Source of the DNA: Escherichia phage vB_EcoM_phAPEC6
Sequence record: MK817115.1
DNA length: 64,000 bases
Direction: 5' to 3' (one strand)
Shown here: positions 47,576 through 63,320 of the stretch, one piece after another
Layout of the letters: every line of letters starts with the position of its first letter
Position numbering within the stretch: position 1 is the stretch's first letter
Notes under the pieces: model-generated
Databases searched by the model: none
Seen by the model: the letters and a program-made list of their open reading frames with translations, nothing else
Told to the model about the DNA's origin: nothing
Position numbers and translations under genes: made by a program

Positions 47576-47580
47576 ATTAA

Positions 47581-47853: not shown

Positions 47854-47904
47854 GGTATAATCCCCAATATAAGCGGCCTAAATCGACCGCTAACGATGTT
47901 TTGA

Positions 47905-48174: not shown

Positions 48175-48254
48175 TATACTATCTTCTTAAGTTAATTTAA
48201 TTTCTTTCCCCTATGCAGACACTATATCAAAGTATCTGCATAAAGTAAAGCTAA

Positions 48255-48599
48255 TTAAAGATCTTTTTTGCGTTTAACATCAGTTACCGAACTGTAAACA
48301 GTGATATTATTGTCACGGCAAAAACGGGAAAGATAAGAACCGCGTAAAAACTCTTTATCTTCCATATTAATAACCTTGCTAAATTCTTCCATTGCTACAG
48401 TGTCAAAGTGATCCCCGTATCCATATTGGAACGGCACGTTTACTACTTCAATAAAATTACCATCAATTTCTACGTCTACACTTAAAGAGAAATAAGTGTT
48501 ACCATATGAAGCCTGGAACCAACGCCGAGCGGCAATATGTACAACTTCAACAGAAGACAGGTTGATATTTTGTTTTGCGATAGTGTTGATATTAGCCAT
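48255..48599 (-). CDS. hypothetical protein (YGYG/DVKRKKD paralog 2)
   Basis: paralog of 42063..42386 (GNTY, YGYG, C-terminal DVKRKKD). Confidence 0.55.
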   Translation of the reverse strand: MANINTIAKQNINLSSVEVVHIAARRWFQASYGNTYFSLSVDVEIDGNFIEVVNVPFQYGYGDHFDTVAMEEFSKVINMEDKEFLRGSYLSRFCRDNNITVYSSVTDVKRKKDL

Positions 48600-48680
48600 T
48601 TTAATTTCCTCTTAGTTGTCTTGATAAAATCTATTATGCCAGTACTATCAAACTATGTCAATAGTACTGTGATAATATTT

Positions 48681-48824
48681 TTACTTACTTTTTGCTTTCT
48701 TTGCTGCTTCCACCTGGTCGGCCCATTCTTTACCCCATACTTGTAAATTATAATGGTACTGGCAAAGTGCAACGCCCCGCTTTAAACCAGTAATAGATTT
48801 TTTACCACATTGACAAGTTTTCAT
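48681..48824 (-). CDS. small Cys-rich protein (47 aa), possible zinc ribbon
   Basis: CQCG...CQYH spacing; cassette upstream; hand-translated. Confidence 0.35.
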   Translation of the reverse strand: MKTCQCGKKSITGLKRGVALCQYHYNLQVWGKEWADQVEAAKKAKSK

Positions 48825-48910
48825 ATTAGTTTCCTCATTATCAGGGAGAACCATTTCTCCCCTTGATGTAATGTATTATACTTTATCTGATTTACTTTGC
48901 AAGTACTTTT

Positions 48911-49138
48911 TTAATTTAATTCATCCAGGCAAAGGATACGCTCAACGCCCAAATCAGTTAAACTAATCGACGGCACTTGATAGGTTTCAATGTATGCTAC
49001 ACTTGCCCACTGACCGAACTCATTAACGGCCCATTTATCCATTGCAAAATGCAATTCCGCACCTTTCTTATTAGTAATTACAGCAACAGTAGAAGAATTG
49101 CCAGTAGTACCAGTTACGCGAGTGATTACGATAGCCAT
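48911..49138 (-). CDS. hypothetical protein
   Basis: start at Met20 (MAIVITRV); track ORF to 49195 reads through leader. Confidence 0.5.
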   Translation of the reverse strand: MAIVITRVTGTTGNSSTVAVITNKKGAELHFAMDKWAVNEFGQWASVAYIETYQVPSISLTDLGVERILCLDELN

Positions 49139-49422
49139 TGTTTTAATTCCTTTGATTTGGAAGGAGAACCGTTTCCCCCTCTCGATGTAAAACATTATAC
49201 GCTAATCTCTTAATCGTGCAAGTACTTTTTATTACTTTTTGCAAAATACTTTAAACGCACTCAATCGCGTTCTTACAGCCTTAACGCCACCAGCTAGGGC
49301 AATGCATCAGATAATCAGTTTAATGCGTTAGAATCGATTCTAGGCGGTGCTGGTGGCCTGGTAAACGTTAAACACAAAAAAGCCCACTTATGCAGTGGGC
49401 TAGTGATTCAGTACTTTAATTG

Positions 49423-49905
49423 TTATGCTTCCACTTTGCGATGAGCTTCGATCCATTCCTCGCGAGTCATACCGCTGGAGTTAATCGCATCCAGTACTAC
49501 CGCAATGCAGTTACCACGCACCGGAATCAGATATTCTTCCCCGTTGTCCAGTACTACCGCTACACGTTTTTGAATCCATTTTTTAGGCTTAGATTCCGGC
49601 TTATCTTCCCCATACTTAACCGCCAGGGCTTTTTGTGCCATCTCTGTAACTACTTCCAGATCCAATCCAACTACTGCCGCCTGAATACTTTCAATTGTTG
49701 CTTGTAGTTCTGCTTCACGGGCCGCCTTTGCCGCTTCAATTTCTGCCGCTTTATTTGCTTGTAGTTCTTTCGCAGTACTATAAGCGATGTTAAAATTATT
49801 GCGTACCGCTTTCATGGTATCGTTATCCAGATCAGCCAGGATCTCTGCCGCGACGTTAGTTTCATTTGCTACCAGTGCTTTGATGAATGATTTTACATTA
49901 GCCAT
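49423..49905 (-). CDS. hypothetical Ala-rich coiled-coil protein
   Basis: start at Met6 behind GAGGA RBS; tandem promoters with structured leader upstream. Confidence 0.5.
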   Translation of the reverse strand: MANVKSFIKALVANETNVAAEILADLDNDTMKAVRNNFNIAYSTAKELQANKAAEIEAAKAAREAELQATIESIQAAVVGLDLEVVTEMAQKALAVKYGEDKPESKPKKWIQKRVAVVLDNGEEYLIPVRGNCIAVVLDAINSSGMTREEWIEAHRKVEA

Positions 49906-50103
49906 TTTATAAATCCTCAATTAAAGTTTAGTTTACGTTGGTTAGTGTATCAAAGTTTTCTCGACGTGTCCAGTTTTTCGTTCGACTTACTGGCGGTCTA
50001 CTTAGTGCTCCCCGTCTTGATGTAATATATTCTACGCCTTTTTGCGGTAATGTCAACTATTTTTTAAAACTATTTTCAAAGTATCTCAGTACTACGATAC
50101 TAC

Positions 50104-50132
50104 AAAAACAAAAAAAGCCCACCAGGTGGGCT
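50104..50132 (-). terminator. rho-independent terminator
   Basis: AGCCCACC..GGTGGGCT hairpin followed by T-run on minus strand. Confidence 0.6.
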
Positions 50133-50138
50133 ATGTAC

Positions 50139-50369
50139 TTAATCAGTAATTAAAACATTAAACACTTTATCATTTAACGTTATGGGTGTACTGCTACCAG
50201 GCTTGAGATCAGTTAGTACACCTGCAATAGCTTTTTCATTGGCGACCTTTCCAGTGTCCAACAGTACTACAGTACTGATAAGATTAACGCTCGTTTCAAT
50301 ATCATAATGCACGGCGTTAAGTAGTTGTGTAGTACTGCTTTCGTTAAGTAAAACAATTCGCTTAGTCAT
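50139..50369 (-). CDS. hypothetical protein
   Basis: ORF-track ORF. Confidence 0.5.
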   Translation of the reverse strand: MTKRIVLLNESSTTQLLNAVHYDIETSVNLISTVVLLDTGKVANEKAIAGVLTDLKPGSSTPITLNDKVFNVLITD

Positions 50370-50390
50370 GATGTTACCCCGTAGTATCTA

Positions 50391-50690
50391 TCAACGGCAA
50401 TTAATAACGCCAGTATGAGTTACTTTCTCAGTATCCATAACAGTGACCGAACCGCGTTTAGTACTTGCATCGTAATAAATTGTCGTGCTACCGTTTTCGT
50501 CTTCTTCATGGAACGGGCCGTTTTTAAATGCTTCCGGCTGGATCTCTAAATCCTTTAAAACAATCTCGCCAGTACTTTCATCGGTCATTGCAACAGTGCA
50601 CTGAATGAATTTTTCACTACTTACATCTAATGACGCATTAACAGCGAAAGAGGAAACAGATAAAGCCAGGGCGATGATTGCAATTTTCAT
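50391..50690 (-). CDS. secreted/periplasmic hypothetical protein
   Basis: classical signal peptide MKIAIIALALSVSSFAVNA with AXA site; two Cys; cassette upstream. Confidence 0.55.
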   Translation of the reverse strand: MKIAIIALALSVSSFAVNASLDVSSEKFIQCTVAMTDESTGEIVLKDLEIQPEAFKNGPFHEEDENGSTTIYYDASTKRGSVTVMDTEKVTHTGVINCR

Positions 50691-50775
50691 TTGATTATCC
50701 TTAGTTACCAGGGGGAACCGCTCCCCCCTTGCGATGTAAAATATTATACAGTACTAAAAACTAATTGCAAGTACT
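50691..50775 (-). promoter_or_regulatory. promoter / 5' stem-loop / RBS cassette
   Basis: TTGCAA, TATAAT, GGGGGAACCGCTCCCCCC hairpin. Confidence 0.6.
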
Positions 50776-51012
50776 TTATGATTTTTTATAAAACATTTCG
50801 GCAGTGATATTTTTACCCGTTGGTTGTACTTTATCCAGAATTTTTTGATGTCCAGGGCGACCAAATGAATAAGATCCGTAAACCGTAAACCAGTAGTTAC
50901 CCTCAGTGTTTACATGTACAGCACAATAGGGAACGCCCCGCGATTCATCACTAGTAAAGTGTGATACCGTACCCGTTACATTCGCAGACGTTGATTTGAT
51001 TTGTTCGACCAT
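50776..51012 (-). CDS. hypothetical protein
   Basis: ORF-track ORF; cassette upstream. Confidence 0.5.
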   Translation of the reverse strand: MVEQIKSTSANVTGTVSHFTSDESRGVPYCAVHVNTEGNYWFTVYGSYSFGRPGHQKILDKVQPTGKNITAEMFYKKS

Positions 51013-51120
51013 TTTCTTATTCCTTAGTTACCAGGGGAACCGCTCCCCCTATGCAAAACATTATACGCGTTTAAAAACTAATAGCAAGTATTTTAATAAA
51101 AAGTATTTGGAAAATAATTG

Positions 51121-51149
51121 TTGACAAGTGCATCCAGTACTGGCATAAT
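51121..51149 (+). promoter_or_regulatory. plus-strand sigma70-like promoter
   Basis: TTGACA-17-CATAAT; followed by CCCACCGGGTGC-containing ~100 nt and a terminator hairpin. Confidence 0.45.
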
Positions 51150-51262
51150 TACTACATCAAGACGAAACAGTCACTAACCCACCGGGTGCCGAGATCCGTC
51201 TATTAAATGATTCAGTACTAAAAAAAGAAAGGGGATCAATTGATCCCCTCGTTGTTATTTTG
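51150..51262 (+). ncRNA. candidate small RNA
   Basis: bounded by promoter above and GGGGATCAATTGATCCCC hairpin plus T-run; no ORF. Confidence 0.3.
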
Positions 51263-51476
51263 TAAGGTATAAACAGAAGTCACCTTTATTTGCTACGCCG
51301 CCAGTGTAACGCGAGGAATAGTTAGAAACGTCCTGGACTTCTGCTATTACCAGGGTATCATCATTCAATTCGTCGCAGAAGCAAACGGCTGGATCTTGTA
51401 CGCCGATATTGTCGGCATGTTCCCGCATAGATTTAACCAGTGCTTCAAGTTGGGAAAGAGTAGTGATATTAGCCAT
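51255..51476 (-). CDS. hypothetical protein
   Basis: start at Met11 (MANITTLSQ); track ORF to 51506. Confidence 0.5.
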   Translation of the reverse strand: MANITTLSQLEALVKSMREHADNIGVQDPAVCFCDELNDDTLVIAEVQDVSNYSSRYTGGVANKGDFCLYLTK

Positions 51477-51559
51477 TTTATTTTCCTCATTACCAGGGAG
51501 AACCATTTCTCCCCTTGATGTAAACTATTATACAGTACTAAAAACTAATTGCAAGTACT

Positions 51560-51841
51560 TTAACTGTAAGATCCGCAACGGTCGCAGTAGTGCCCCTCGT
51601 CATCGTCAACGAATTGACCAACGAAATTATCTACTTTCGCTTTCAGGTTATTATAATCGTTTTCTACTTCATTTAAACGCTTCTGGTAGTATTCCAGTGC
51701 TTTAAGATATGCCGCATCAGCAGTTTTCTCCTGCATAGCTAAATTCATGCCACGCGTTTCATCGTACAGCCAAAAACCATCGGTGCACTGGCTAATAGAT
51801 AATGACTTGCTTAGTACTGTATAGTTAATTACTTTACTCAT
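51560..51841 (-). CDS. hypothetical protein
   Basis: start at Met28 behind GAGGG RBS; track ORF to 51922 reads through GGCGGGG..CCCGCC hairpin. Confidence 0.5.
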   Translation of the reverse strand: MSKVINYTVLSKSLSISQCTDGFWLYDETRGMNLAMQEKTADAAYLKALEYYQKRLNEVENDYNNLKAKVDNFVGQFVDDDEGHYCDRCGSYS

Positions 51842-51899
51842 TAGATAAACCCTCAATAAAGGCGGGAACCATTCCCCGCCATTGTTACAGTACTGAATA

Positions 51900-52139
51900 T
51901 TACATTCCAACCATTGCAGCACGGATCGCAGTAGTGCTATACTTAAAGCCGTCCGGCGTTGTAGTAGTACCGTTGGCTTTTAATCTGCGGTACATGCATT
52001 CCGCTGCAATATCTTTAGTTCTACTTTGTGCGATACAACTTTGTGCAAGCCGATACAATGACTCACCGTTATTAATCCATAAGGAAACATTCCAATGAGT
52101 TTTGTTTTTGTGCCCGTTGTAAGTTTTAGTACTAGCCAT
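51900..52139 (-). CDS. hypothetical protein (THWNVSLWINN paralog 1)
   Basis: paralog of 53937..54176 (GHKNKTHWNVSLWINN, TPDGFKYSTTAIRAAMVGM). Confidence 0.55.
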   Translation of the reverse strand: MASTKTYNGHKNKTHWNVSLWINNGESLYRLAQSCIAQSRTKDIAAECMYRRLKANGTTTTPDGFKYSTTAIRAAMVGM

Positions 52140-52231
52140 TTTTTTTAATCCTCGTTTGAGCGGGGAACCACTCCCCGCCTCGATATAAAGTATTATACGC
52201 TTTTAAACTTAGTTTGCAAGTACTTTTTAAA
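52140..52231 (-). promoter_or_regulatory. promoter / 5' stem-loop / RBS cassette
   Basis: TTGCAA, TATAAT, GCGGGGAACCACTCCCCGC hairpin. Confidence 0.6.
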
Positions 52232-52843
52232 TTAATATTCGATTGATTCTACTACGCCATCAATAACATTGAATTGATATTCGTTACCCTCAATCAGTGC
52301 TGTAATGTTTTCAGTAGTGAATTGATCCTCATATGCATTCTCTAAATCACGGTACAACTTGCGGGATAATTCACGAATAGTTTCAGTGAGTAGTTCCTCA
52401 AGCTCATTAACTAACGTTTCTTGTTTTGCGGTTAAATCAGTGTAAGCCGATTCAATGTACCCGCTTACAGTGTTTTCATGCGAGTAGTGGGAGTGAGAAC
52501 GCTTTACACTCATCGCCAAATCATCTTCATTCAGCAGGTGACGGATTGAGCGATACTTAGTTAATGCTCTTACCTTGCGTAAAAACTTCACTGCGTCAAC
52601 GTGGTCAGTACTGATTGATGCACCGTCACCCTGGGACCAAAAACCACTGAATTGTATTTCAGCGTCATTAATGCCATATTCCGGCAATACTGTTTCTTTA
52701 TAGTGTTCAATTTCACTTTCAGAAAAATAATCGTCGTTTGAGTTTTTTTCACGTTCCCGAACCAGTTCGATAGCTGACGTTTTTTGTTCTGCGTTCAATT
52801 CAGAAAAATCCATAACATAAGTAGTAGTAGTGATAGTTTTCAT
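52232..52843 (-). CDS. hypothetical acidic protein (203 aa)
   Basis: ORF-track ORF, strongly Asp/Glu-rich; tandem promoters with structured leader upstream. Confidence 0.55.
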   Translation of the reverse strand: MKTITTTTYVMDFSELNAEQKTSAIELVREREKNSNDDYFSESEIEHYKETVLPEYGINDAEIQFSGFWSQGDGASISTDHVDAVKFLRKVRALTKYRSIRHLLNEDDLAMSVKRSHSHYSHENTVSGYIESAYTDLTAKQETLVNELEELLTETIRELSRKLYRDLENAYEDQFTTENITALIEGNEYQFNVIDGVVESIEY

Positions 52844-53060
52844 TTTGTAACCCTCATTCAGTAGTTTATGTAAGTATTATACGCTTTTAAAAACAATTGT
52901 CAAACTATTTTATCAGGGGAGTTTTTCGTGTGCCTTACTCCTGGGCTACTTAACGGGAAGTTACTTATTTCGTTCCCCGTCCTGATGTAAAACATTATAC
53001 GCCTTTAAACATAGTTTGCAAGTACTTTTTAAAAATAGTTTTCAGTACTGAATAGTAAAA
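52844..53060 (-). promoter_or_regulatory. tandem promoters separated by ~80-nt structured leader element (copy 2)
   Basis: near-identical to 43085-43170 element with compensatory stem changes. Confidence 0.5.
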
Positions 53061-53065
53061 AGGTA

Positions 53066-53094
53066 TTGACAGCACTATCCAGTACTGGTATAAT
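53066..53094 (+). promoter_or_regulatory. plus-strand consensus sigma70 promoter
   Basis: TTGACA-17-TATAAT; downstream CCCACCGGGTGC and GATACACTCCCGCACCC elements, no ORF. Confidence 0.45.
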
Positions 53095-53268
53095 ATACCC
53101 CATGACAACAGCTAACCCACCGGGTGCACAATTGTAACTGTACTAAACTACTTTTTCTATAGATACACTCCCGCACCCTATGGGCTACGGCTTATCTGCC
53201 AATGAATACATTATGCCAGTACTGACAAAATAAGTCAATACCGGCAATTGTAAAGATTTGTAAACTAC

Positions 53269-53499
53269 TTATACTGCAATCGCGTCCAGGCTATAATAAT
53301 AATAAGTGCCGTATTGGTGTACTTTATTACCTTTTATTTCAGTACTGAATGAATCCGAACGATTGGCATATGATGTTAATTTATAGTACTTTACTTTACT
53401 AATACGTTGCCATACACCGCAGATCCGCTGTAAGTAAGTAGTTTTATTTGTGGTAGTATCTTTTACGGCTTTCAATTCGATCATATACATAGTGGTCAT
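53269..53499 (-). CDS. hypothetical protein
   Basis: ORF-track ORF; AAGGAG RBS and cassette upstream. Confidence 0.55.
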   Translation of the reverse strand: MTTMYMIELKAVKDTTTNKTTYLQRICGVWQRISKVKYYKLTSYANRSDSFSTEIKGNKVHQYGTYYYYSLDAIAV

Positions 53500-53584
53500 T
53501 TTATTACTCCTTGCTTTAGTGGGGAACTATTCCCCACCTGATATAAAGTATTATACGCGTTTAAACTTAGTTTGCAAGTACTTT

Positions 53585-53851
53585 TTATTCAAGTACTGCG
53601 ATCTTTTTAATACGGTACACGGTCACGCGGTTGCCCTTTCGGTCGAGCTTTATTTCTACCACTCGACGCGATACACTATCAGGACTTTTCAACGCCGCTA
53701 ACCAGTACTGTAATGATCTGGCGGTACTACGCTTTACAATGGCCCAACGTTTACCACGTTCCGATTGTACGCCCATATCTTTAAACGTTGCCCCGTCCTG
53801 GCGTGCGGCGATCCGAGCTTGTTCACGCGTCGCAAAATACTTAATATTCAT
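53585..53851 (-). CDS. hypothetical protein (FATREQAR paralog 2)
   Basis: start at Met13 (MNIKYFATREQ); promoter region also paralogous to that of 41568..41963. Confidence 0.55.
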   Translation of the reverse strand: MNIKYFATREQARIAARQDGATFKDMGVQSERGKRWAIVKRSTARSLQYWLAALKSPDSVSRRVVEIKLDRKGNRVTVYRIKKIAVLE

Positions 53852-53936
53852 GCTGTTGCCCTTATCGTTGGTGTATGAATAAAACACTATTATAAAGTAC
53901 TATCGCAAAAAATGATAGTACTTTAAATAAATTCTA

Positions 53937-54176
53937 TTACATTCCAACCATTGCAGCACGGATCGCAGTAGTGCTATATTTGAATCCGTCCGGTGTTTTA
54001 TCTTGTCCAGTCTGTTCTAAAAATAACATCATATGACGGGCCGCATCATTACGATTAGTATTGGCGGCAATAAAGTCCTGGGCCAACCGGTATAATGATT
54101 CATCGTTATTAATCCAAAGGCTTACATTCCAATGAGTTTTGTTTTTGTGACCTAAGAACATTTTTGATTTAGCCAT
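53937..54176 (-). CDS. hypothetical protein (THWNVSLWINN paralog 2)
   Basis: start at Met14 (MAKSKMFLGHKNKTHW) by analogy with 51900..52139. Confidence 0.55.
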   Translation of the reverse strand: MAKSKMFLGHKNKTHWNVSLWINNDESLYRLAQDFIAANTNRNDAARHMMLFLEQTGQDKTPDGFKYSTTAIRAAMVGM

Positions 54177-54269
54177 TTTTTTAATCCTCTTATATAGTGG
54201 GGAACTATTCCCCACCTGATGTAAAACATTATACGCTTTTAAACATAGTTTGCAAGTACTTTATTAAAC
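54177..54269 (-). promoter_or_regulatory. promoter / 5' stem-loop / RBS cassette
   Basis: TTGCAA, TATAAT, GGGGAACTATTCCCCAC hairpin. Confidence 0.6.
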
Positions 54270-54632
54270 TTATTCGTAAATTTTGCCACTGTCAGCCCAT
54301 ACCAGGAAACGAGGCATATTATCCCATGCATCTTGTTTTAAATTTAAACCGTGTAATACTTCTGTACTTTCCATTCCTGGTACTGGTTTACTATACACCG
54401 CAAATAGTTCACCCATATACTGATAAGCCATCGTTAAATCACTGGCGATCATCTTATGGATCATCGCATCAAGCATCACGGTAGCGGCGTATTGTTCACG
54501 CTTAAGCGGTAACATTGCAATAAGTTCCCGATAAGCTGAAATGTGAATTTTTACCGTTTCAGCCGGAAGACCTTTCATCTCTTCACGGAAGTTAACCAGG
54601 TTAGCAATAATTTTATTGATTTGAGTCGCCAT
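54270..54632 (-). CDS. hypothetical protein
   Basis: start at Met20 (MATQINKII) behind AAGAGAGA RBS; first gene after the noncoding hub. Confidence 0.5.
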   Translation of the reverse strand: MATQINKIIANLVNFREEMKGLPAETVKIHISAYRELIAMLPLKREQYAATVMLDAMIHKMIASDLTMAYQYMGELFAVYSKPVPGMESTEVLHGLNLKQDAWDNMPRFLVWADSGKIYE

Positions 54633-54746
54633 CGTTTTCATCTCTCTTACAGTGTAGCGGGAAGTGTTCCCGCTCTCGATGTAAAACATTATACGCTTTT
54701 AAACATAGTTTGCAAGTACTTTCTACATGTACTTTTAAAATAGTTT

Positions 54747-54840
54747 TCTTTCTATATAGGAGTACTATTATTCAGTACTGCAACCATCCAGGGGAACTAT
54801 CTTTCTATATAGTAGTACTATTATTCAGTACTGAATCAAT
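54747..54840. repeat. direct repeat, 2 copies of ~36 bp
   Basis: CTTTCTATATAGGAGTACTATTATTCAGTACTG repeated ~60 bp apart. Confidence 0.55.
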
Positions 54841-54995
54841 CAACCAAATCACTACTACACCCCGTAAAACGGCCTCAGACGCATTCTAACGCATTAATAC
54901 ACCCAAGCTATACATTTGCACCATTCCAATCATTCCAGGGCTTTACGGGCCGTTTAAACGCGTTAAATTATTTTCAATTATTTTGTTTTTAGGTA

Positions 54996-55023
54996 TTGAC
55001 TCAGTACAGAAAAAGCGTATAAT
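54996..55023 (+). promoter_or_regulatory. plus-strand sigma70-like promoter
   Basis: TTGACT-16-TATAAT; followed by GGGTGCGG..CCGCACCC inverted repeat. Confidence 0.45.
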
Positions 55024-55210
55024 TACTATATAGACGCGAGAAAGCGGAAACCCCAGAGGGTGCGGAATTACGCCCAAAATTCAAGATATAAAAAAAGGAT
55101 ACACTCCCGCACCCTAGCAGGTAAACGCACTTTCTCAGTACTGAAATATAGTACCATAGTCCGGCCCAGGATAGCAAGCAAATTAATTAAAACTTTTTTC
55201 ATCCAGGGTA

Positions 55211-55238
55211 TTGCTTTATTTTTCCAGTACTGTATAAT
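55211..55238 (+). promoter_or_regulatory. plus-strand sigma70-like promoter
   Basis: TTGCTT-16-TATAAT; followed by GAGAAAG..CCCACCGGGTGC..TTACGCCCAAAATTCA element shared with 55040-55100. Confidence 0.45.
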
Positions 55239-55469
55239 AGTTCCATCAAGTCGAGAAAGACTCAAGCCCACCGGGTGCATAGTTACGCCCAAAATTCAGT
55301 ACTAGATTATTTTTTAAAAATATTCATCCAGGCGGTTGACATTGCCCCCAGTTTATAAGATAATGATTCCAGATTCAGAAAAATCTAACTCCAGATACTG
55401 CGGGGAAACTATCCCCACGCGGTAGGGGAACTATTGGAAAAAACAAAATAAAATTTTGATTTAGCCGTC

Positions 55470-55600
55470 TATACTTCCAGACGTGTAACCATCTAGCCGT
55501 TTAGCCGTCCAAACGTCTAGCCATCCAGCCCTCCAGAAATCTAGCCGTTTAGCCGTCTAGATGGATAGCCATCTTTACTTCCAGACTTCTGGAGGGCTAG
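55470..55600. repeat. iteron-like repeat cluster with inverted repeat
   Basis: CTAGCCGTTTAGCCGTC twice, multiple TAGCC(G/A)T words, 11-bp inverted repeat GCCCTCCAGAA/TTCTGGAGGGC. Confidence 0.5.
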
Positions 55601-56631
55601 ACATATCTACGTCCAAAATCCACCCAGGGTAACTACGCCCAAAATCCGTCAGTACTATACCATAGATCTATCTTTTGAAAGGGAGTATTCAGTACTGCCA
55701 TCATAGCCCTCACTATGTTACCCTAGGAGGATGAAGACTATCATGTAGTACTGAATACTGTTAGAGGGAATCCACCAGCACAAGCTGGTGGCATAATGCT
55801 TTAGATTAAAATCAGTACTGACACCATTCTGTTAATATCAGTACTGTTATTACGATTTTCATATGAGGTTCAAAAAGATGTACCACCACAGGAGGAACTA
55901 TCTTTTCTGTACTGTCTCACGACAGGAGGTAGAGTAAATGAATTGTTCGCAGCAACTCATCACCCTATGTAGAACATTATACAGTACTGAATCATAATGT
56001 CAATAGCTTTCTTTCATTATTCAGTACTGATATTCTTGAGAACTACCCGACTACAAACATCATTATATCCCACAAATCATAAACGTCCCAACGTAAATTT
56101 CAACTTTCGAAGATCCAACTTTTATTTCATAGGTACTCCAAAATTTTTAGGATCGAGATTTAGGATGGAGTACTAACCAACTTTTTGCTGGAGCCTCAAG
56201 GGGTAATGGAATTTTACCCCGAAGGGTAAAGGGGTAATTGAAATTAAGGTGAAAGTAATAATTCAGTACTAATCATTGCGTGATTACTTTTGATTACATT
56301 TGATGTAATTTGAAAAATGGAAAAGGAGCTTGGAAACTACAAAGTACGGCAGACTTCCTCTGCCTACTTAGTGGCATATCAGTACTGAATCCTTCCCGTG
56401 CATTCTTGAGCATTCTTGTCTATACTAATCAGTACTGAATCATATATAATCATTCTGTGATTCTACGGTGCTCATATAAATGTTTATATATGATTACTTA
56501 TGACTACCTATGATTACGGGGTTTAGCCTGGGGAGAATCCTAGTGATCGCATTTGTCCAGGCTGAATTTTAACAATTCGCCTGTACATAAAGGTTGTTCA
56601 CTAGGAGCTTCCCCTGTCTCTATGTGTTTAA

Positions 56632-56823
56632 TTACTTTCTATATATAAGCATTAAGATATAGTAGTACTGATTATACTGTACATTCTCTTTAATATTATA
56701 AGGGTCTATAGCAATCTCGGTACATCTGTTAAATGCATATCTATTAAATGCCAGTGGAATTATAGATCTAATCCATACTTGTTCATTTTCTTTTAGTTTA
56801 CTTATATAGAAGTTTTTATACAT
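56632..56823 (-). CDS. FamC mini-protein
   Basis: N-term MYKNFY, C-term ILMLIYRK; tandem array. Confidence 0.55.
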   Translation of the reverse strand: MYKNFYISKLKENEQVWIRSIIPLAFNRYAFNRCTEIAIDPYNIKENVQYNQYYYILMLIYRK

Positions 56824-56838
56824 AGTATTCTCTATTAA

Positions 56839-57021
56839 TTAATATGATAGTACTAGTGTTAGTACTGAGCACAATTGTTCTTTATAGTTCTTAGGGTATA
56901 TAGAATCTTTTATGCACTCATTGAAGTGCCATAGGTATAATCTTGGGTCGCATTCTTTATATATTCTTACGGGGACGAATGTTAGTTTTCTTATATAGAA
57001 TTCTTTATGTTCTTTATTCAT
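56839..57021 (-). CDS. FamC mini-protein
   Basis: N-term MNKEHKEFY, C-term LTLVLSY. Confidence 0.55.
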   Translation of the reverse strand: MNKEHKEFYIRKLTFVPVRIYKECDPRLYLWHFNECIKDSIYPKNYKEQLCSVLTLVLSY

Positions 57022-57022
57022 A

Positions 57023-57211
57023 TTAGTACCTGAATATAAGTAGGATTATGTTATAGTACTGGTTAGTACTGCAATGATTCTCTATACATCGATTAACAGT
57101 TATGGAATAGCTATATCTGGCGTAAGCATTATCCAGCGGGATTTTACATTGAGCACTTAGAGAAAGTACAGTAGGTAGTGTATTCAAATAGAAGTCTTTG
57201 TAATTATTCAT
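57023..57211 (-). CDS. FamC mini-protein
   Basis: N-term MNNYKDFY, C-term ILLIFRY. Confidence 0.55.
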   Translation of the reverse strand: MNNYKDFYLNTLPTVLSLSAQCKIPLDNAYARYSYSITVNRCIENHCSTNQYYNIILLIFRY

Positions 57212-57413
57212 ACAGGAATAGTATACCTATGATACCTGAGTACAGGTTAGTACTGTTACCATCTTCGTTTGCGTTTAAAGTCATTTGAATACAATTATTG
57301 TAGCATACTCTGCCGAAAAATGTATTAGTACTTAAAGGTGGAGTAGTCCTTAGAAACATTTGTTCTGAGGGGCTTATGTATTTGGAGTAGAATTCTTTAT
57401 GTTCTTTATTCAT
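57204..57413 (-). CDS. FamC mini-protein
   Basis: N-term MNKEHKEFY; near-duplicate of 60216..60425. Confidence 0.55.
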   Translation of the reverse strand: MNKEHKEFYSKYISPSEQMFLRTTPPLSTNTFFGRVCYNNCIQMTLNANEDGNSTNLYSGIIGILFLYE

Positions 57414-57418
57414 ATTAG

Positions 57419-57604
57419 TTAGTGTCTGTATATAAGTAATAGTAAGAATACGTACTGCACATCTTCATCTTTAGTATTGAGTACTGTACGTATTGCGTCA
57501 TTAAACAAGAATATAGTACTTGGGTCATGAGAATTTAAAGGGGTTCTGGGTACGGCATGTTTGTAGTTCCCTTTAACAAATTGTGTGTAGTATTCTCTAT
57601 GCAT
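57419..57604 (-). CDS. FamC mini-protein
   Basis: N-term MHREYY, C-term LLLLIYRH. Confidence 0.55.
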   Translation of the reverse strand: MHREYYTQFVKGNYKHAVPRTPLNSHDPSTIFLFNDAIRTVLNTKDEDVQYVFLLLLIYRH

Positions 57605-57605
57605 A

Positions 57606-57791
57606 TTAGTACCTATATATTAGGGCGATAATGTAGTACAATTCATATGGAATGTAATTTGGGGTGATCGCACACTGTGTATGGTAAATGAATTGTTCGG
57701 TATTTTTCTTATCCTTGATATCTATTGGGATTAGTGGTATAAGCATTTGGGAGTTTAGATCGAGATGGCTTAAGTAGAATTCTTTATGCAT
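57606..57791 (-). CDS. FamC mini-protein
   Basis: N-term MHKEFY, C-term IALIYRY. Confidence 0.55.
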   Translation of the reverse strand: MHKEFYLSHLDLNSQMLIPLIPIDIKDKKNTEQFIYHTQCAITPNYIPYELYYIIALIYRY

Positions 57792-57800
57792 ATTGTTCTT

Positions 57801-57989
57801 TTAGAATACGAAAGCTAGGTACAGGGTATGATACAGTACTCGATGATAGCTGTCAAAATCTAGTATACATGCTTTAGTGCACATAGTAAAGTACACTTTA
57901 TCGTTTTGTGCATTGATACCGCGAGGTTTATCTAATAGATTAGTACTGAGGTACATTGGGAAATATTTTGTGTAGTATTCTTTATGCAT
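57801..57989 (-). CDS. FamC mini-protein
   Basis: start at Met16 (MHKEYYTKYF); track ORF to 58034. Confidence 0.5.
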   Translation of the reverse strand: MHKEYYTKYFPMYLSTNLLDKPRGINAQNDKVYFTMCTKACILDFDSYHRVLYHTLYLAFVF

Positions 57990-57990
57990 A

Positions 57991-58173
57991 TTAGTACCTG
58001 AATATAAGTAGGATAGTGTTATATAGCTGGTCATAACTACTACTATTTTCTATACTTCGTTCTATGCAGTTATTGAATCCCAGTACTGCCAAATCGTTAT
58101 CCATAGGGACTTTGTATCTGGCGTAGTGTTCAAAAATGCTGGGGAGAAATTGTGTGTAGTATTCTTTGTGCAT
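57991..58173 (-). CDS. FamC mini-protein
   Basis: N-term MHKEYY, C-term ILLIFRY. Confidence 0.55.
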   Translation of the reverse strand: MHKEYYTQFLPSIFEHYARYKVPMDNDLAVLGFNNCIERSIENSSSYDQLYNTILLIFRY

Positions 58174-58174
58174 A

Positions 58175-58360
58175 TTAGTACCTATATATTAGTAAAAGGA
58201 TGTGATACAGTACTCGATTATAGTCTTCAATATATATCGAGGATTTAGTGCACTGAATGAAGTAGTCTTTTTCGTAGTTTTTTTCTATACCCAATGGTTC
58301 TGTTGGTACAAGGTGTTGGAGATACATTGGGAGTTTCTCTATGTAGTATTCTTTATACAT
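58175..58360 (-). CDS. FamC mini-protein
   Basis: N-term MYKEYY, C-term LLLIYRY; AAGGA RBS. Confidence 0.55.
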   Translation of the reverse strand: MYKEYYIEKLPMYLQHLVPTEPLGIEKNYEKDYFIQCTKSSIYIEDYNRVLYHILLLIYRY

Positions 58361-58369
58361 ATATTATCC

Positions 58370-58567
58370 TTAGTACTGGAACGCAAGGTACAGGGTGTGG
58401 TAAAGTTGTACTTGATAATTGTTTTCATTAGCTTCTTCATTAAGTACTTGTTCAGTACATGTACGGAAGTAATCAGCTTCATATATACAGTCAATACCGC
58501 GAGGTTCATCTTCTAATAGATTTCCTTGTAGAAACTTTGGTAGTTCTTTTATGTAGAATTCTTTATA
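58370..58567 (-). CDS. FamC mini-protein
   Basis: start at Met23 (MYKEFYIKELP); track ORF to 58633. Confidence 0.5.
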   Translation of the reverse strand, partial: YKEFYIKELPKFLQGNLLEDEPRGIDCIYEADYFRTCTEQVLNEEANENNYQVQLYHTLYLAFQY

Positions 58568-59234
58568 CATAGTTTGTAATATACGTAATGAGGTGATGCA
58601 TTTTCTTATCAGTACTGATAATTTCCTGTACATGTTTTGTCAGATTGTACGCGTTTTTATAGAGTACTGGATTATCGATTACAGTACTGTACATGAATAG
58701 TTCTTCTTCCTGTAGTTCTTTGTGTTCTAGTTCTTTGAGGAATTCTACAATTGATTTAGTTTCTTCTGTACGTTGTGCTTGCCAGAAGTGCATATTCTCG
58801 TGTACTTTTTTTGCACCTATACTGTATATACCACCCATTTGGAATTGTGCTGTATTGACATCGTGGGAGGTGTTACAATTCCCGAAGAAGTATGTATTCC
58901 CGAAGTATAGCATTAAAGTGCACGGGGTATTATCCAACTGCATATGGATGATGAAGGATGCGTTCTTTAGTACCTTTGTGCTCGTATTAGTACTCAATAC
59001 TTTTAAATCAGTATTATAGATATTCATATAATGAACAGCTATATTATTTTTCTTCATGTACAATCCCAGGTTCTTTGATACGTTAACTCCATTTGTACTG
59101 GATTTTTCCTTTTTATTTCGTTTCTTTAGTACATTCGGGTGATACGTATATGCAGATGTAACTGATTCTGCCTGAATACTATTGAGGTACTTAAAGTGCT
59201 TAAGGTATTGTTTGCTGTGTGCATTAAGTTTCAT
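58563..59234 (-). CDS. FamA-like protein embedded in FamC array
   Basis: 223 aa with QEEELFMYSTVIDN (FQxS-type core with M for Q). Confidence 0.55.
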   Translation of the reverse strand: MKLNAHSKQYLKHFKYLNSIQAESVTSAYTYHPNVLKKRNKKEKSSTNGVNVSKNLGLYMKKNNIAVHYMNIYNTDLKVLSTNTSTKVLKNASFIIHMQLDNTPCTLMLYFGNTYFFGNCNTSHDVNTAQFQMGGIYSIGAKKVHENMHFWQAQRTEETKSIVEFLKELEHKELQEEELFMYSTVIDNPVLYKNAYNLTKHVQEIISTDKKMHHLITYITNYV

Positions 59235-59244
59235 TTGGTTTCCT

Positions 59245-59424
59245 TTATATAGATGCCAGGGCGAGGATTTCCCTGTAGGGATTATCTTGTGTTAGTACAG
59301 CATAAATGCAGTTATTGAGATTAATATTTTTAGTACTTTTTGTTCCTAGTTTGTAGTACTTCACGAAGGTGTCGTACATGAAACGGTCTTTTATGGTTAT
59401 ACGTTCTCTATAGAATTGTTGCAT
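59245..59424 (-). CDS. FamC-like mini-protein (59 aa)
   Basis: hand-translated; N-term MQQFY, C-term EILALASI; just below track cutoff. Confidence 0.4.
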   Translation of the reverse strand: MQQFYRERITIKDRFMYDTFVKYYKLGTKSTKNINLNNCIYAVLTQDNPYREILALASI

Positions 59425-59432
59425 AGTATTCC

Positions 59433-59615
59433 TTAAATAGCGATTAGTTTCATTACTTCTCTGTATGTGTACTTTTCGTTTTGTGCATCTCTTGTGACGA
59501 CATATAGGAAGGTGTGTTTATCTTTTTTGTTCCCGCAATTGTAGAAAATATTGAACTTATTGAAGTTGAATCTTTCGGCGTGTTGTAGTTTAGTTAAATA
59601 GAATTCTATGTTCAT
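59433..59615 (-). CDS. FamC mini-protein
   Basis: N-term MNIEFY, C-term KYTYREVMKLIAI. Confidence 0.5.
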   Translation of the reverse strand: MNIEFYLTKLQHAERFNFNKFNIFYNCGNKKDKHTFLYVVTRDAQNEKYTYREVMKLIAI

Positions 59616-59623
59616 TTTCTTCC

Positions 59624-59809
59624 TTACATTTCAATAAGTTTCAGTACTGCTCGGTACGTGTACTTAGTTGTCAGTGCTTCTTTAATAGAAATACAGAAGT
59701 AATGTTGTTTGTCTCTTATACTGCCGCGTTTGTAGTACCACACATGGGAGTTGTGACTGTACTTGTCTCTGTCGGATAGTTGTTGGTAGTAGTAGCTTAT
59801 ATGATTCAT
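59624..59809 (-). CDS. FamC mini-protein
   Basis: C-term TKYTYRAVLKLIEM, paralog of 59433..59615. Confidence 0.5.
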   Translation of the reverse strand: MNHISYYYQQLSDRDKYSHNSHVWYYKRGSIRDKQHYFCISIKEALTTKYTYRAVLKLIEM

Positions 59810-60018
59810 TATAATGTAATTAGCCTTACTATATTAAAGTACTCGGTCCCTGGTGTACCTTGTAGTATATTACGCACGACATTTTTTTGGTGCTGGATGA
59901 TTGCTGAAGGTGCGGTTCTTTTTAGTTTTTTTAAAGTACTGAATTCTTGTTTAAGTATGAACTGTACATCTTTAGGGAGAATATCTATGTAGTACTGATG
60001 AATGTTTGTAGTTTTCAT
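59809..60018 (-). CDS. FamC mini-protein (QYYID subtype)
   Basis: HQYYIDILP and RNILQGTPG; paralog of 60427..60630. Confidence 0.5.
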   Translation of the reverse strand: MKTTNIHQYYIDILPKDVQFILKQEFSTLKKLKRTAPSAIIQHQKNVVRNILQGTPGTEYFNIVRLITL

Positions 60019-60028
60019 ATAGCACCTT

Positions 60029-60223
60029 TTAGAACTTAAAGATGAGGTTCAGGATAGAGCGGTACTTAGTTTCAGGGAACTGATGTTCTATTGCATAACG
60101 TGTCGCCATCCTGAAATCGTAATTGTAATATAGATTATCCTTTCTCATAGGTGGTGCTAAAGAGAATGATAGCTGGTCTTGCTTGTGTAGTTTACTACCA
60201 TAGAAATCTTTATGATTATTCAT
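60029..60223 (-). CDS. FamC mini-protein
   Basis: N-term MNNHKDFY, C-term LNLIFKF. Confidence 0.5.
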   Translation of the reverse strand: MNNHKDFYGSKLHKQDQLSFSLAPPMRKDNLYYNYDFRMATRYAIEHQFPETKYRSILNLIFKF

Positions 60224-60425
60224 AGAAGTAGATTAGTCCTATTAAACCTGAGTACATAATATTTTTGTTATTGCATTCGATTGCTTCTAGAGTACTACGT
60301 ATACAATTATTAAAGCAATCTCTACCGAAGTGAGTATTGGTACTTACAGGTGATACACTCCTTAGAAACAATTGTTCTTCGTTGCTAAGGTATTTGGTGT
60401 AGAATTCTTTATGTTCAGTATTCAT
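60216..60425 (-). CDS. FamC mini-protein
   Basis: N-term MNTEHKEFYTKYLS, near-duplicate of 57204..57413. Confidence 0.55.
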   Translation of the reverse strand: MNTEHKEFYTKYLSNEEQLFLRSVSPVSTNTHFGRDCFNNCIRSTLEAIECNNKNIMYSGLIGLIYFYE

Positions 60426-60426
60426 A

Positions 60427-60630
60427 TTAGTACTCGATTAAAAGGGCAAGGATATAATAGTATTGCATACTTTCTGCCCCTTGTAAAGCATTTCTTATGA
60501 TATTATTCCTGTACGAGTTCAGGAGTTTAGGACAACGTTTGTAGTGTATAATAGTATTTTGTGTATACAGTAGGCTTTCTCGTAGACCTTTTGTTGGTAG
60601 TGCATCGATGTAGTACTGTTCGATATTCAT
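60427..60630 (-). CDS. FamC mini-protein (QYYID subtype)
   Basis: EQYYIDALP and RNALQGAES. Confidence 0.5.
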   Translation of the reverse strand: MNIEQYYIDALPTKGLRESLLYTQNTIIHYKRCPKLLNSYRNNIIRNALQGAESMQYYYILALLIEY

Positions 60631-60854
60631 ATAGATAGCAGTACTAAGATTTTTGATAATTGTTTATTGCTATCCCCGCAGATGTTGCTGTGTAAAATAC
60701 TCACAATGAGGGTATCAATTGCATTGTTCATCATAAGGGTGCATCCTGGACTATTATAATTTTTTAGCTCAATTAGCCACGAACTATCCGAGAGAAACTC
60801 CCCGTACTCTAGTTCATTTAGAGTATTGAGGTAGTACTTAAGAGTATTTGTCAT
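60627..60854 (-). CDS. FamC-like mini-protein (first gene of array)
   Basis: ORF-track ORF, C-term KILVLLSI; divergent point of transcription. Confidence 0.45.
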   Translation of the reverse strand: MTNTLKYYLNTLNELEYGEFLSDSSWLIELKNYNSPGCTLMMNNAIDTLIVSILHSNICGDSNKQLSKILVLLSI

Positions 60855-60956: not shown

Positions 60957-62105
60957 ATGTTACCTTTTGCAAGAATGATTAAGTACGGGAATATTGCCCC
61001 TGGTGATGATGGACGTTTTAAAATATATTCCAGTGATTCCATGTATCTTCATGATACTTATACTGATAAGTTGTATGCATCTTCTGCGACGAATTGGGGT
61101 ACTGGTACAGGTGTAGCATCGAGTAAATTTATTCTTTGTGCGGAGAATGTTAAACGAGTTCTATTGGAAGATAACAGTAGTGATTGTCAATTGTACGAAG
61201 AGAAAGGTACGGGAAAAGTTTTTATCACTGGCAACACGAAGGCATTCACTGGTGTAACTGATAGAAAAACTTTGTGGACGGACTGTACTACATGGATAAC
61301 ATCAGGTGGTATTAATGTTTCTGATATAAAATACATGAGTAGTTTTTATGATATGAAGGTGAATTTGATAACAAACGATGGTACATTGTATTGTTGTGGA
61401 GCTAACAATATATCGAACATATCATCATTTGGTGATGGCACAAACATTAATTCTTTTAACACATTCAAAAGAGTAGATACTATAACTTCGGTTAAAAAGG
61501 CAGTTGGTAACATTTATTTGCGAGAAGATAATACTTTATGGGGTTGTGGTTTTAACTATTACTACCAGTTGGGTACGGGTAATCAAACTTCTATTACTGG
61601 GGTGACGATGATTTCTTCGGATGTTATAGATTTTAATGTAAGTTATCAGAGTACATTTTTTATCAAATCGGATAATAATTTGTACGCTTGTGGTAAACAG
61701 TTCGGTGCACAATATGGGAACGAATTTGGTACAGGTGGTACTTCTACATCTACAGATATACAATATAAAACTCCGACATTATTGAGTTCAGGAGTTTATA
61801 CTCTATATACTTGTGTTGGTAACATGGCATCACATATTGTCAAAGCAGATGAAGTTCTATATGCTTCTGGAACGAATGGGTTTGGGCAATTAGGTGTTGG
61901 TAATAATAATAATCAGTACTCCTATACTCCTTCTTATACTTCTTTTAATAGTTCGTGTGATTTGGTACGCAGTCCATCTGGATCACTTATACTTACGGAT
62001 ACTGGAAAATTATATTATTGTGGCATTGCAATAGTAGTAATGGGTGGTATTTCTGGACAGAACGTTCTTAATTATACAGAAGTAGATATGTCATTTATAC
62101 AATGA
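60957..62105 (+). CDS. RCC1-like repeat (beta-propeller) protein, FamD copy 1
   Basis: repeated LWGCGFNYYYQLGTGN, LYASGTNGFGQLGVGN blocks; start at MLPFARMIKYGN behind AAGGAGG (track ORF begins 18 nt upstream). Confidence 0.6.
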   Translation: MLPFARMIKYGNIAPGDDGRFKIYSSDSMYLHDTYTDKLYASSATNWGTGTGVASSKFILCAENVKRVLLEDNSSDCQLYEEKGTGKVFITGNTKAFTGVTDRKTLWTDCTTWITSGGINVSDIKYMSSFYDMKVNLITNDGTLYCCGANNISNISSFGDGTNINSFNTFKRVDTITSVKKAVGNIYLREDNTLWGCGFNYYYQLGTGNQTSITGVTMISSDVIDFNVSYQSTFFIKSDNNLYACGKQFGAQYGNEFGTGGTSTSTDIQYKTPTLLSSGVYTLYTCVGNMASHIVKADEVLYASGTNGFGQLGVGNNNNQYSYTPSYTSFNSSCDLVRSPSGSLILTDTGKLYYCGIAIVVMGGISGQNVLNYTEVDMSFIQ

Positions 62106-62113
62106 ATTAATAT

Positions 62114-62142
62114 GCCAGTACTTGATACTGGCTTTTCTTTTT
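62114..62142 (+). terminator. rho-independent terminator
   Basis: GCCAGTA-CTTGA-TACTGGC hairpin followed by TTTTCTTTTT. Confidence 0.6.
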
Positions 62143-62177
62143 GTATTAAATATAGTATAATGAATAAAGGAGGAATT

Positions 62178-63320
62178 ATGTTACCTTTTGCAAGAATGGT
62201 TAAGTACGGGAATATTGCACCTGCACAAATCGGTAGATATAAAATATACAGTTCATCTTCTTCACTATTTTTATTGGATACCCAAAAACACAATTTGTAC
62301 AGTACATCGAACATTAATTATACTAGTGGTACAGGTAATGTTGAGCCTAAATTTGTGTTAAGTGCAACTAATGTTAAAAGATTATTACTATCTGATAATA
62401 GTTGTGCAATGCAAATATATGAAGATATGAATGGGCGTGCAGCGATGTGTGGCACAAGAACTGCATATAGTGGGGTTGCAAATGATAATGTACTGGTATG
62501 GACGGATTGCACTACATGGTTCACAAATGTAGGGTTGAATGTATCAGATATTCAGTACATGTCTGGTTTTTATAATCTGAAACTAAACATAGTTATGAAT
62601 AATGGTGATTTGTGGTGTAGTGGGAAAAACAACACTACTACTATGTCATCATTTGGTAATAGCACAAATATCGATTCATTCAATCAGTTTACCAAAATAA
62701 CAACAATATCAAATGTTATTAAAGCCACCGGGAATATATACTTATGTGCAGATAATACTTTATGGGGATGTGGTTTTAACTCTTACTATCAGTTAGGGAC
62801 AGGTAATCAAACATCCAGTATTAATTTGATTATGATGGCTTCTAATGTTATCGACTGTAATGTTGGTCTTCAAAATACTTATTACTTGACTAATAATAAA
62901 GAACTTTATGGATGTGGTACACAATTTGGTACAACTTACGGGAATGAATTTGGAACAGGAAGGCAGGGAACATCAATACAATATAAGACTCCTACTATAA
63001 TTTTCACAAATGCAGATGGTCTGGCTGTTTGTGTCGGTAATATGTCTACTCATGTTATTCAATATGATAAAGTTTTTAGTTCTGGTAATAATGCCCTTGC
63101 ACAGTTGGGTGTAGGCAACCGTGACAATGTGTACACATATACACAATCATTTGATAATTTCAAAATGGATTCTTCTATAGTACGTGCAAACGTTGGAACA
63201 TTGATAATGACAGCGGACAATAAGTTATATTACAGTGGGAGAAATGATGTTGTTATGGGTGGAACAAGCACACAATACACGACGGTTTTCAGTGAAGTTA
63301 ATATGTCATTTATACAATGA
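62178..63320 (+). CDS. RCC1-like repeat protein, FamD copy 2
   Basis: same N-terminus MLPFARMVKYGN and C-terminus EVNMSFIQ as copy 1; LWGCGFNSYYQLGTGN; start behind AAGGAGG. Confidence 0.6.
   Translation: MLPFARMVKYGNIAPAQIGRYKIYSSSSSLFLLDTQKHNLYSTSNINYTSGTGNVEPKFVLSATNVKRLLLSDNSCAMQIYEDMNGRAAMCGTRTAYSGVANDNVLVWTDCTTWFTNVGLNVSDIQYMSGFYNLKLNIVMNNGDLWCSGKNNTTTMSSFGNSTNIDSFNQFTKITTISNVIKATGNIYLCADNTLWGCGFNSYYQLGTGNQTSSINLIMMASNVIDCNVGLQNTYYLTNNKELYGCGTQFGTTYGNEFGTGRQGTSIQYKTPTIIFTNADGLAVCVGNMSTHVIQYDKVFSSGNNALAQLGVGNRDNVYTYTQSFDNFKMDSSIVRANVGTLIMTADNKLYYSGRNDVVMGGTSTQYTTVFSEVNMSFIQ

Follow-up and report, generated by a model that had tools for sequence, protein, structure and literature searches.

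The genomes of enterobacterial Rak2-like jumbo phages carry the palindromic hexamer AGTACT far more often than chance allows, and the word is kept there by selection. We analysed a 64,000-nucleotide stretch of Escherichia phage vB_EcoM_phAPEC6 (MK817115.1), referred to below as the window, in which AGTACT occurs 271 times against 18.5 ± 4.2 in dinucleotide shuffles. The longer form CAGTACTG is present 58 times, compared with 0.66 ± 0.93 in the same shuffles. Among the 6-mers of the window, AGTACT scores highest (z = 57, first-order Markov model), and words contained in it or extending it lead the rankings at every word length from 4 to 8. The window is coliphage DNA of Asteriusvirus, a group of ~350-kb 'Rak2-like' jumbo myoviruses; the 4 kb around the original finding share 97% identity with Escherichia phage PBECO4 and 92–93% with phage 121Q.

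The original prediction, made from the letters of this stretch, stated that the palindrome is over-represented far above chance, which turned out to be an understatement. Its CAGTACTG copies lie where it placed them (54773–54780, 54826–54833, 55813–55820, 55839–55846, 55982–55989 and 56022–56029), and copies occur inside genes as it had noted, 180 of the 271 being coding. The claim that almost every intergenic spacer holds the motif is true of 36.3–56.7 kb (40 of 45 spacers of at least 30 bp) and fails for 1–36.3 kb (3 of 13). Because most copies are coding and the enrichment is genome-wide and spans several genera, the intergenic and promoter copies first described are only the densest tip of a far larger phenomenon.

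AGTACT inside genes and across the genome

The enrichment is a DNA-level signal read as a palindrome, not an artefact of codons or composition. Coding copies in the window use all three reading frames. When synonymous codons were exchanged within each gene, so that proteins and codon usage were kept, the enriched blocks lost about two thirds of their sites (observed versus shuffled: 59 versus 19.7, maximum 29; 43 versus 12.9; 30 versus 7.6; 30 versus 9.4). AGTACT thus does not fall to its expected frequency after correction for codons and composition, the doubt that the original prediction had attached to itself, and window genes without paralogues still contain 100 copies in 31 kb. Within paralogue families the hexamer recurs at roughly homologous spots in different frames (Ser-Thr, x-Val-Leu, x-Tyr). 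The unit preserved is therefore a DNA word rather than a peptide, and inheritance by paralogue duplication explains the similar places only in part, since the frames differ. The flanks of the hexamer are symmetric as well, with C at −1 and G at +6 in 44–47% of sites and T/A enriched farther out; G at −1 is rare (5–9%).

These results bear on an origin in the codons or peptides of the paralogous FamA genes together with base composition. The FQYST codon motif to which the original prediction drew attention does exist, occurring twice as TTCCAGTACAGTACTG (minus strand, 12135 and 13499), and FQYST is written as TTCCAGTACAGTACT in two genes. Sites in the paralogue arrays also concentrate at 50–90% of gene length, as a peptide-driven pattern would have it. 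However, FQxST peptides yield only 7 of the 271 sites, and singleton genes and intergenic DNA are enriched too, throughout the genome. Taken with the frame analysis and the roughly threefold drop in synonymous shuffles, this refutes the artefact, to which we assign a negligible chance.

Genome-wide counts were made on the whole 121Q genome, joined from seven segments, which holds 903 copies of AGTACT where ~100 are expected. Every 5-kb bin contains between 5 and 39 copies (1.4 expected), replication and structural modules included. Coding copies number 746 of the 903, compared with 213.5 ± 13 in synonymous shuffles, and are divided 365/143/238 among the three frames. Their density lies at 1.6–2.9 per kb everywhere except in the early block, where it rises to 4.5 per kb. 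Between genes, only the early block (11.4 per kb) and the DNA next to the RCC1 array are dense in AGTACT. Between 200 and 348 kb, AGTACT is the most frequent of all hexamers.

Phages usually lose palindromes under restriction pressure. In 121Q eight 6-bp palindromes are absent altogether: CCATGG (47 expected), CAGCTG (35), AGGCCT (23), AGCGCT (16), CCCGGG, CCGCGG, CGGCCG and CGCGCG. AGTACT is the sole enriched palindrome of this length, at 9-fold, the next reaching 1.6-fold. The genome thus displays strong classical restriction avoidance with one striking exception: the depletion expected of type II palindromes is not seen for AGTACT, a ScaI-type site. The purging of palindromes in 121Q is, as an observation in its own right, unusually complete.

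The sites are spaced more evenly than random, with a coefficient of variation of 0.72–0.85 (P = 0.001–0.04 in five of six homogeneous regions); in the 200–348 kb segment the value for AGTACT, 0.85, lies below those of all 23 control hexamers. When the window is compared with 121Q (93% identity), the intact fraction is 90% for AGTACT sites and 75% for all hexamers (z about 5). Across genera, at ~73% identity, the positional signal is weak, 27–41% of sites being kept against a background of ~20%, and totals stay steady at 39–45 AGTACT per 21 kb. At long range, individual sites turn over and density is held.

To place the enrichment among phages, we surveyed IMG/VR loci around the capsid gene, using the 12 longer loci (at least 12 kb) whose capsid protein is at least 80% identical. 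Nine of the 12, RaK2, GAP32-type and CBB-type loci among them, hold 34–45 AGTACT where 5–7 are expected, and the remaining three (L013, L014, L018) are enriched 3–4.5-fold. Synonymous shuffles of the capsid region give z about 9 for 121Q, RaK2 and the GAP32-type phage; a relative at 72% identity (L025) has a weaker enrichment (z = 4), and the capsid loci of more distant relatives have none. Salmonella phage Munch, of another genus, carries 123 copies in its first 20 kb (6.4 expected). The unrelated coliphage A73 (Vequintavirinae) avoids AGTACT in its genes (0 versus 6.6 expected) despite two promoter cassettes, which rules out a general adaptation of coliphages or to the host. A 50-kb sample of E. 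coli K-12 contains 3 copies (0.06 per kb) compared with 2.6 per kb in the phage, so that the word is 40–100 times denser in phage DNA than in the sampled host stretch. Since A73 avoids AGTACT and the host sample is poor in it, the selective force goes with the phage clade rather than with an E. coli host in general. The searchable literature holds no earlier report of the motif in these phages. As a separate observation, Chi-like fragments (CTGGTG, GCTGGT, TGGTGA) rank among the most over-represented hexamers in many capsid loci (L009–L088), an excess that could reflect codon usage or be related to Chi.

Promoter copies and the AGTACA block

The spacers between 36 and 55 kb contain, on the coding strand, sigma70-like promoters followed by a GC-rich 5' stem-loop, and AGTACT occupies fixed places in them. 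At an offset of −7 from the −10 hexamer it forms AGTACT-N-TATAAT, found 12 times in the window and 18 times in 121Q, which bears out the claim that AGTACTG is set directly against the −10 box. At an offset of −27 it takes the form AAAAGTAC-TTGCAA/TTGACA (10 in the window, 13 in 121Q). The two positions, about −19 to −14 (abutting the −10 element) and about −39 to −34 (overlapping the −35 element), lie 20 bp apart, and AGTACT pair distances of 20–23 bp are over-represented. The spacer positions beside the hexamer are variable (0.1–0.5 bits); thus the presence of the hexamer is more than a by-product of identical promoter copies. Munch has the same geometry (−7 and −27/−28) in promoters that are otherwise different.

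Several further observations concern these cassettes. On the minus strand of 36301–54700, nearly every promoter is followed, just past the likely start (CATC), by a conserved hairpin, ggggagaa-NNNN-ttctcccc. It is a GC-rich stem-loop of the 5' untranslated region without a T-run, as in the promoter-early stem-loop (PeSL) cassettes of T4-like phages, and has no Rfam match. A73 carries two near-copies of the window's cassettes (L089, 19685–19760 and 19995–20090), and their sequences imply a probable horizontal transfer of cassettes between unrelated phage groups. Two CAGTACTG copies spaced 26 bp apart at 55813–55846 (minus strand) can form an 8-bp stem with each other, which a scan called a terminator-like hairpin; the published CBB terminator Torf26 has the same build. 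Judged by their sequence, neighbouring copies of the palindrome can double as stem-loops. A repeated long-spacer element on the minus strand (37547–37790, 39826–40056, 43040–43360, 46481–46915, 51013–51254 and 52844–53268) comes with a TTGACT...TATTAT promoter of its own and the conserved segment gcccacMgggtgcataagtgtatc. It has no Rfam match and may be a small RNA family.

One part of the window departs from the pattern by a single base. Between 21.1 and 28.7 kb, the variant AGTACA occurs 39 times on the coding strand, split 13/13/13 among the frames (synonymous shuffle mean 13.9, maximum 25), and its reverse complement has no copies. The same block is present in 121Q (L005, 12500–19000) and in TH47 (L091, 4500–12000), a member of a divergent Asteriusvirus subgroup (74–89% identity), and the motif switches sharply at both edges of the block. 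AGTACA sites turn over between the subgroups, and none of the diverged positions has become AGTACT. No relatives of the block were found outside Asteriusvirus; an ancestral AGTACA motif in distant relatives was considered and rejected, the strand asymmetry there being ordinary coding bias. In a second block, at 31.5–36.3 kb, neither AGTACT nor AGTACA rises above background. The genes of the AGTACA block are also a divergence hotspot, 100% identical inside one Asteriusvirus subgroup and 54–56% identical to the other.

Possible readers of the hexamer

For a word that is symmetric to 10–12 bp and selected at the DNA level, the natural candidates are a dimeric protein and a type II-like enzyme. 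We tentatively favour the former: AGTACT, extended to TTCAGTACTGAA, may be the recognition site of a symmetric dimeric DNA-binding protein that tags phage DNA and serves as an operator at early promoters, a reading that we regard as plausible, if short of probable. From the clade specificity of the enrichment, the reader is probably encoded by the phage. Because AGTACT is so rare in the host sample, such a protein would bind phage DNA almost exclusively, with roughly one site every 400 bp, and could there act as an address tag or an architectural coat of the phage genome. In the Asteriusvirus and Munch lineages, the same site would have been built into early promoters at the two positions described above. 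Both would fall inside the RNA polymerase footprint, two helical turns apart, where they could form an operator. In the simplest case, early transcription would be shut off as the protein accumulates.

Several points weigh against this proposal. No sequence-specific DNA-binding domain, helix-turn-helix or other, was found by Pfam among the 150 window proteins. The low host density comes from a single 50-kb sample with 3 sites. A block that uses AGTACA only does not follow from a simple symmetric-dimer model. About two thirds of the promoter-like sequences of the window have no site at −7 or −27, and the CBB genome is enriched, yet its published RpoD-like promoters lack the hexamer. The promoter role is consequently confined to certain lineages and cannot have come first; enrichment across the genome predates the use of the hexamer in promoters. 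Finally, a repressor with ~900 genic sites, late genes included, could obstruct replication and transcription.

The original prediction had offered a binding site for a phage factor, a DNA modification signal or a packaging signal. What stands of this is a DNA-level, palindromic and promoter-tied signal, which may be read by a binding factor or by a modification enzyme. Packaging is unlikely, because the phage has a T4 gp17-like terminase and ~900 copies are evenly spread over its genome. The main rival to a binding protein is an enzyme that modifies DNA site-specifically at AGTACT, by methylation or with a bulkier adduct, a possibility to be taken seriously even if we do not expect it to be the answer. 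Each additional site would add a modified position and strengthen the global protection, against host nucleases, of a genome that is otherwise unmodified, selecting for a high, even density that is highest in the first-entering end. The modification state of promoters, differing between virion and newly replicated DNA, could in addition time early transcription. A 6-bp palindrome has the usual size of a type II methyltransferase target, and the even, frame-independent, genome-wide density with turnover of sites would fit, as would its peak in the early, terminal region, where terminal repeats are annotated. RaK2 DNA is reportedly cut only by methylation-insensitive enzymes (PMC3622015), and alternate HIP palindromes of cyanobacteria are found together with their cognate methyltransferases (PMC4390886). 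Two phage methyltransferases are recognisable, however: a C5 enzyme (annotated as HaeIII-like in phage Sharanji) and a Dam-family enzyme; cytosine methylation in RaK2 was reported at CpG, and AGTACT contains neither CpG nor GATC. Neither of these known enzymes is thus a likely reader, and none specific for AGTACT or GTAC was identified among the recognisable methyltransferases. Nor does protection alone predict a symmetric preference over 10–12 bp or the exact placement at −7 and −27. A methyltransferase also enters a neutral alternative, in which biased mutation or very-short-patch repair converts near-matches to a functionless AGTACT. A comparable model has been proposed for the cyanobacterial palindrome HIP1 (PMC4390886), and it would account for a frame-independent spread over the genome and for an apparent 'conservation' of sites. 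We consider it improbable, and it leaves part of the data unexplained. Words one base away from the hexamer show no depletion, with the deamination-type AGTATT/AATACT at expectation (0.94–1.24), so that a repair-driven origin finds no support there. A mutational process does not predict spacing more even than random, promoter positions are fixed across genera, and two blocks of the same genome escape entirely, one of them with a different enriched word. No cognate methyltransferase or Vsr-like gene was identified.

The promoter copies invite another explanation, namely that the hexamer is a mere part of the early promoter (an extended −35 or UP-like element plus a spacer element), recognised by RNA polymerase in its host or phage-modified form and multiplied with repeated mobile cassettes, the genic copies being incidental. 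Both AAAAGTAC-TTGACA/TTGCAA and AGTACT-N1-TATAAT recur in two genera, the cassettes are repeated 5–20 times per genome and found even in the Vequintavirinae phage A73, and cassettes of the PeSL type are known to spread (PMC4122927). Yet this, too, covers only part of the data. Most copies (746 of 903 in 121Q are coding) sit within genes at a distance from promoters, including in structural and replication modules where intergenic density is low, and CBB-type genomes are enriched without the promoter motif. It would be a coincidence for one palindrome to be optimal at two unrelated RNA polymerase contact regions, and AGTACT-G-TATAAT is out of register with an extended −10 (TGnTATAAT). We give this explanation a small chance. 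A host protein is a far more remote candidate still, whether the nucleoid-occlusion factor SlmA, TrpR with its GTACT half-sites or another enterobacterial factor. Where the host of an enriched phage is known, it belongs to the Enterobacterales, and the E. coli SlmA site GTGAGTACTCAC is a 12-bp palindrome with an AGTACT core, read by a dimeric protein (PMC3020112). SlmA needs G1, T2 and a purine at position 3 (PMC3020112); the palindromic 12-mer G1 T2 R3 A4 G5 Y6 has no strict match, GAGTACTC flanks occur at 3 of 903 sites and, as noted, G at −1 is rare. The flanks that SlmA requires are thus specifically under-represented, and the phage sites are not SlmA sites. TrpR is ruled out by its geometry: it requires CTAG cores and GTACT...AGTAC 14 bp apart in an 18-bp operator, whereas no AGTACT pairs lie at 14 bp and the flanks are TGAA rather than TAGT; a TrpR match for TTCAGTACTGAA in the literature proved to be a mis-predicted motif in a benchmarking table. 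The avoidance of AGTACT by the unrelated coliphage A73 speaks against a host reader.

Beyond the dimeric binder itself, a wider hypothesis can be drawn from the sequence. Rak2-like jumbo phages might tell their own DNA from that of the host by sequence, not by base modification or a phage nucleus: an evenly spaced palindrome would recruit a phage factor, either a binder or a modifying enzyme, to coat, protect or organise the 350 kb of DNA and to time early transcription, and the strand-specific AGTACA 'dialect' block would be read differently. We put this forward as speculation and think it doubtful.

Layout of the window and comparison with known systems

Up to ~60.9 kb, nearly all genes of the window lie on the minus strand, and two plus-strand genes with RCC1 repeats follow. 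Arrays of small paralogues (1–36 kb) give way to about 50 small open reading frames with their own promoters (36–55 kb), and a gene-free stretch of 1.35 kb (55.3–56.6 kb) separates this early-promoter block from genes of ~60 amino acids. Coordinates are collected in Table 1.

Table 1. Features of the window and their motif content
Position	Strand	Feature	Motif content
1–21100	minus	Paralogous gene arrays (FamA-like, FQxS motif)	Coding AGTACT 2.7–6.5 per kb
21101–28700	minus	Variant block	AGTACT 0–1; coding-strand AGTACA 39
31501–36300	minus	Paralogues of ~72 amino acids, motif-free	AGTACT 0; GTAC 11 versus 14.5 expected (background)
36301–54700	minus	~50 small open reading frames, sigma70-like promoter and 5' stem-loop cassette upstream of each	AGTACT per kb: spacers 11.4, genes 4.4
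45780–45825	minus	Dual-site promoter AGTACT-ATTGACA...AGTACT-G-TATAAT	AGTACT at 45815–45820 and 45793–45798, 22 bp apart
53535–53584	minus	'−27' class promoter AAAGTAC-TTGCAA-N16-TATAAT	Hexamer at 53577–53582, overlapping the first −35 base
54731–56631	no strand	Stretch of the original prediction: end of early-promoter block and 1.35-kb gene-free region	18 AGTACT, 11 CAGTACTG
54824–54835	no strand	Complete 12-bp palindrome	TTCAGTACTGAA; 5 in the window, other starts 15102, 39936, 53041, 53338
55976–56003	minus	Perfect TTGACA-16-TATAAT promoter, '−7' class	AGTACT at 55983–55988, one base upstream of −10
56632–60854	minus	Close-packed genes of ~60 amino acids	Coding AGTACT 7.3 per kb (30 versus 9.4, synonymous shuffle)
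60957–63320	plus	Two RCC1-repeat genes	AGTACT at background (1 versus 1.8, synonymous shuffle)

The gene-free region (55281–56631) has features of its own. It holds a tandem array of ~12 copies of the 8-mer TAGCCGTC at 55462–55560, the sign of the G-skew flips at ~56 kb while the genes remain on the minus strand, and several Asteriusvirus records begin, or annotate direct terminal repeats, nearby. The region may be a genome terminus, a terminal-repeat boundary or an origin. Searches of this stretch and the early block with Rfam and ARAGORN returned no structured RNA or tRNA. The early block encodes a DksA/TraR-type C4 zinc-finger protein (of an RNA polymerase-binding family), a GNAT acetyltransferase and a protein with a ParE-like toxin domain (within 36300–64000 of the window; 121Q equivalents gp294–295, L004 46932–47609), which are candidates for host-takeover functions.

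None of the systems that we compared fits AGTACT fully; by analogy, the closest is Highly Iterated Palindrome 1 (HIP1) of cyanobacteria, GCGATCGC, whose function is still unexplained (PMC5861425, PMC4390886). In both cases, one short palindrome is hyper-abundant genome-wide, inside genes in all frames and between them, and the same two candidate explanations apply, selection on DNA structure or methyltransferase-linked repair (PMC5861425, PMC4390886). Sites in both are conserved above background with a non-random, quasi-regular distribution, although for AGTACT this amounts to local evenness only (coefficient of variation 0.72–0.85). The differences are considerable. AGTACT resides in a virus and not a cell, is AT-rich and 6 bp long, and is enriched 9-fold whereas HIP1 reaches 15–300-fold; no cognate methyltransferase was found for it among the recognisable phage enzymes (C5, Dam family). 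It also takes fixed promoter positions, whereas no role in gene regulation has been found for HIP1, and one block of its genome carries a variant that differs by one base and is strand-specific.

Stoperators of cluster A mycobacteriophages, the sites of the L5 repressor gp71, likewise comprise dozens of short repressor sites in and between genes, besides a true operator at the early promoter. They are 13-bp asymmetric sites oriented with transcription, numbering ~20–30 per 50 kb in a temperate phage with a known repressor. AGTACT resembles them in overlapping core elements of early promoters and in having many extra genic copies. In contrast, it is palindromic, ~4-fold denser and belongs to a virulent jumbo phage, where only the AGTACA block is co-oriented with transcription. 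The PeSL cassettes of T4-like phages correspond to the copies at 36–55 kb, which sit in repeated composites of a sigma70 promoter and a stem-loop between small open reading frames of a hyperplastic region (PMC4122927). Whereas such cassettes explain how promoter copies multiply, they do not explain ~750 genic copies or the enrichment of structural modules, and no iterated palindrome has been described as part of a PeSL.

AGTACT is the commonest hexamer in large parts of a 350-kb genome and is conserved over several genera, which indicates a strong selective force on the DNA itself. Unless the sites are modified, ScaI-type enzymes, whose target is AGTACT, would cleave these genomes ~900 times. 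Should the word prove to have a protein or enzyme as its reader, this factor would organise or self-mark the whole genome in a way not described for phages, and would offer a handle on early-gene control in a clade whose genes mostly lack a known function. The AGTACT system would likewise offer the HIP1 puzzle a small, fast and genetically tractable model.

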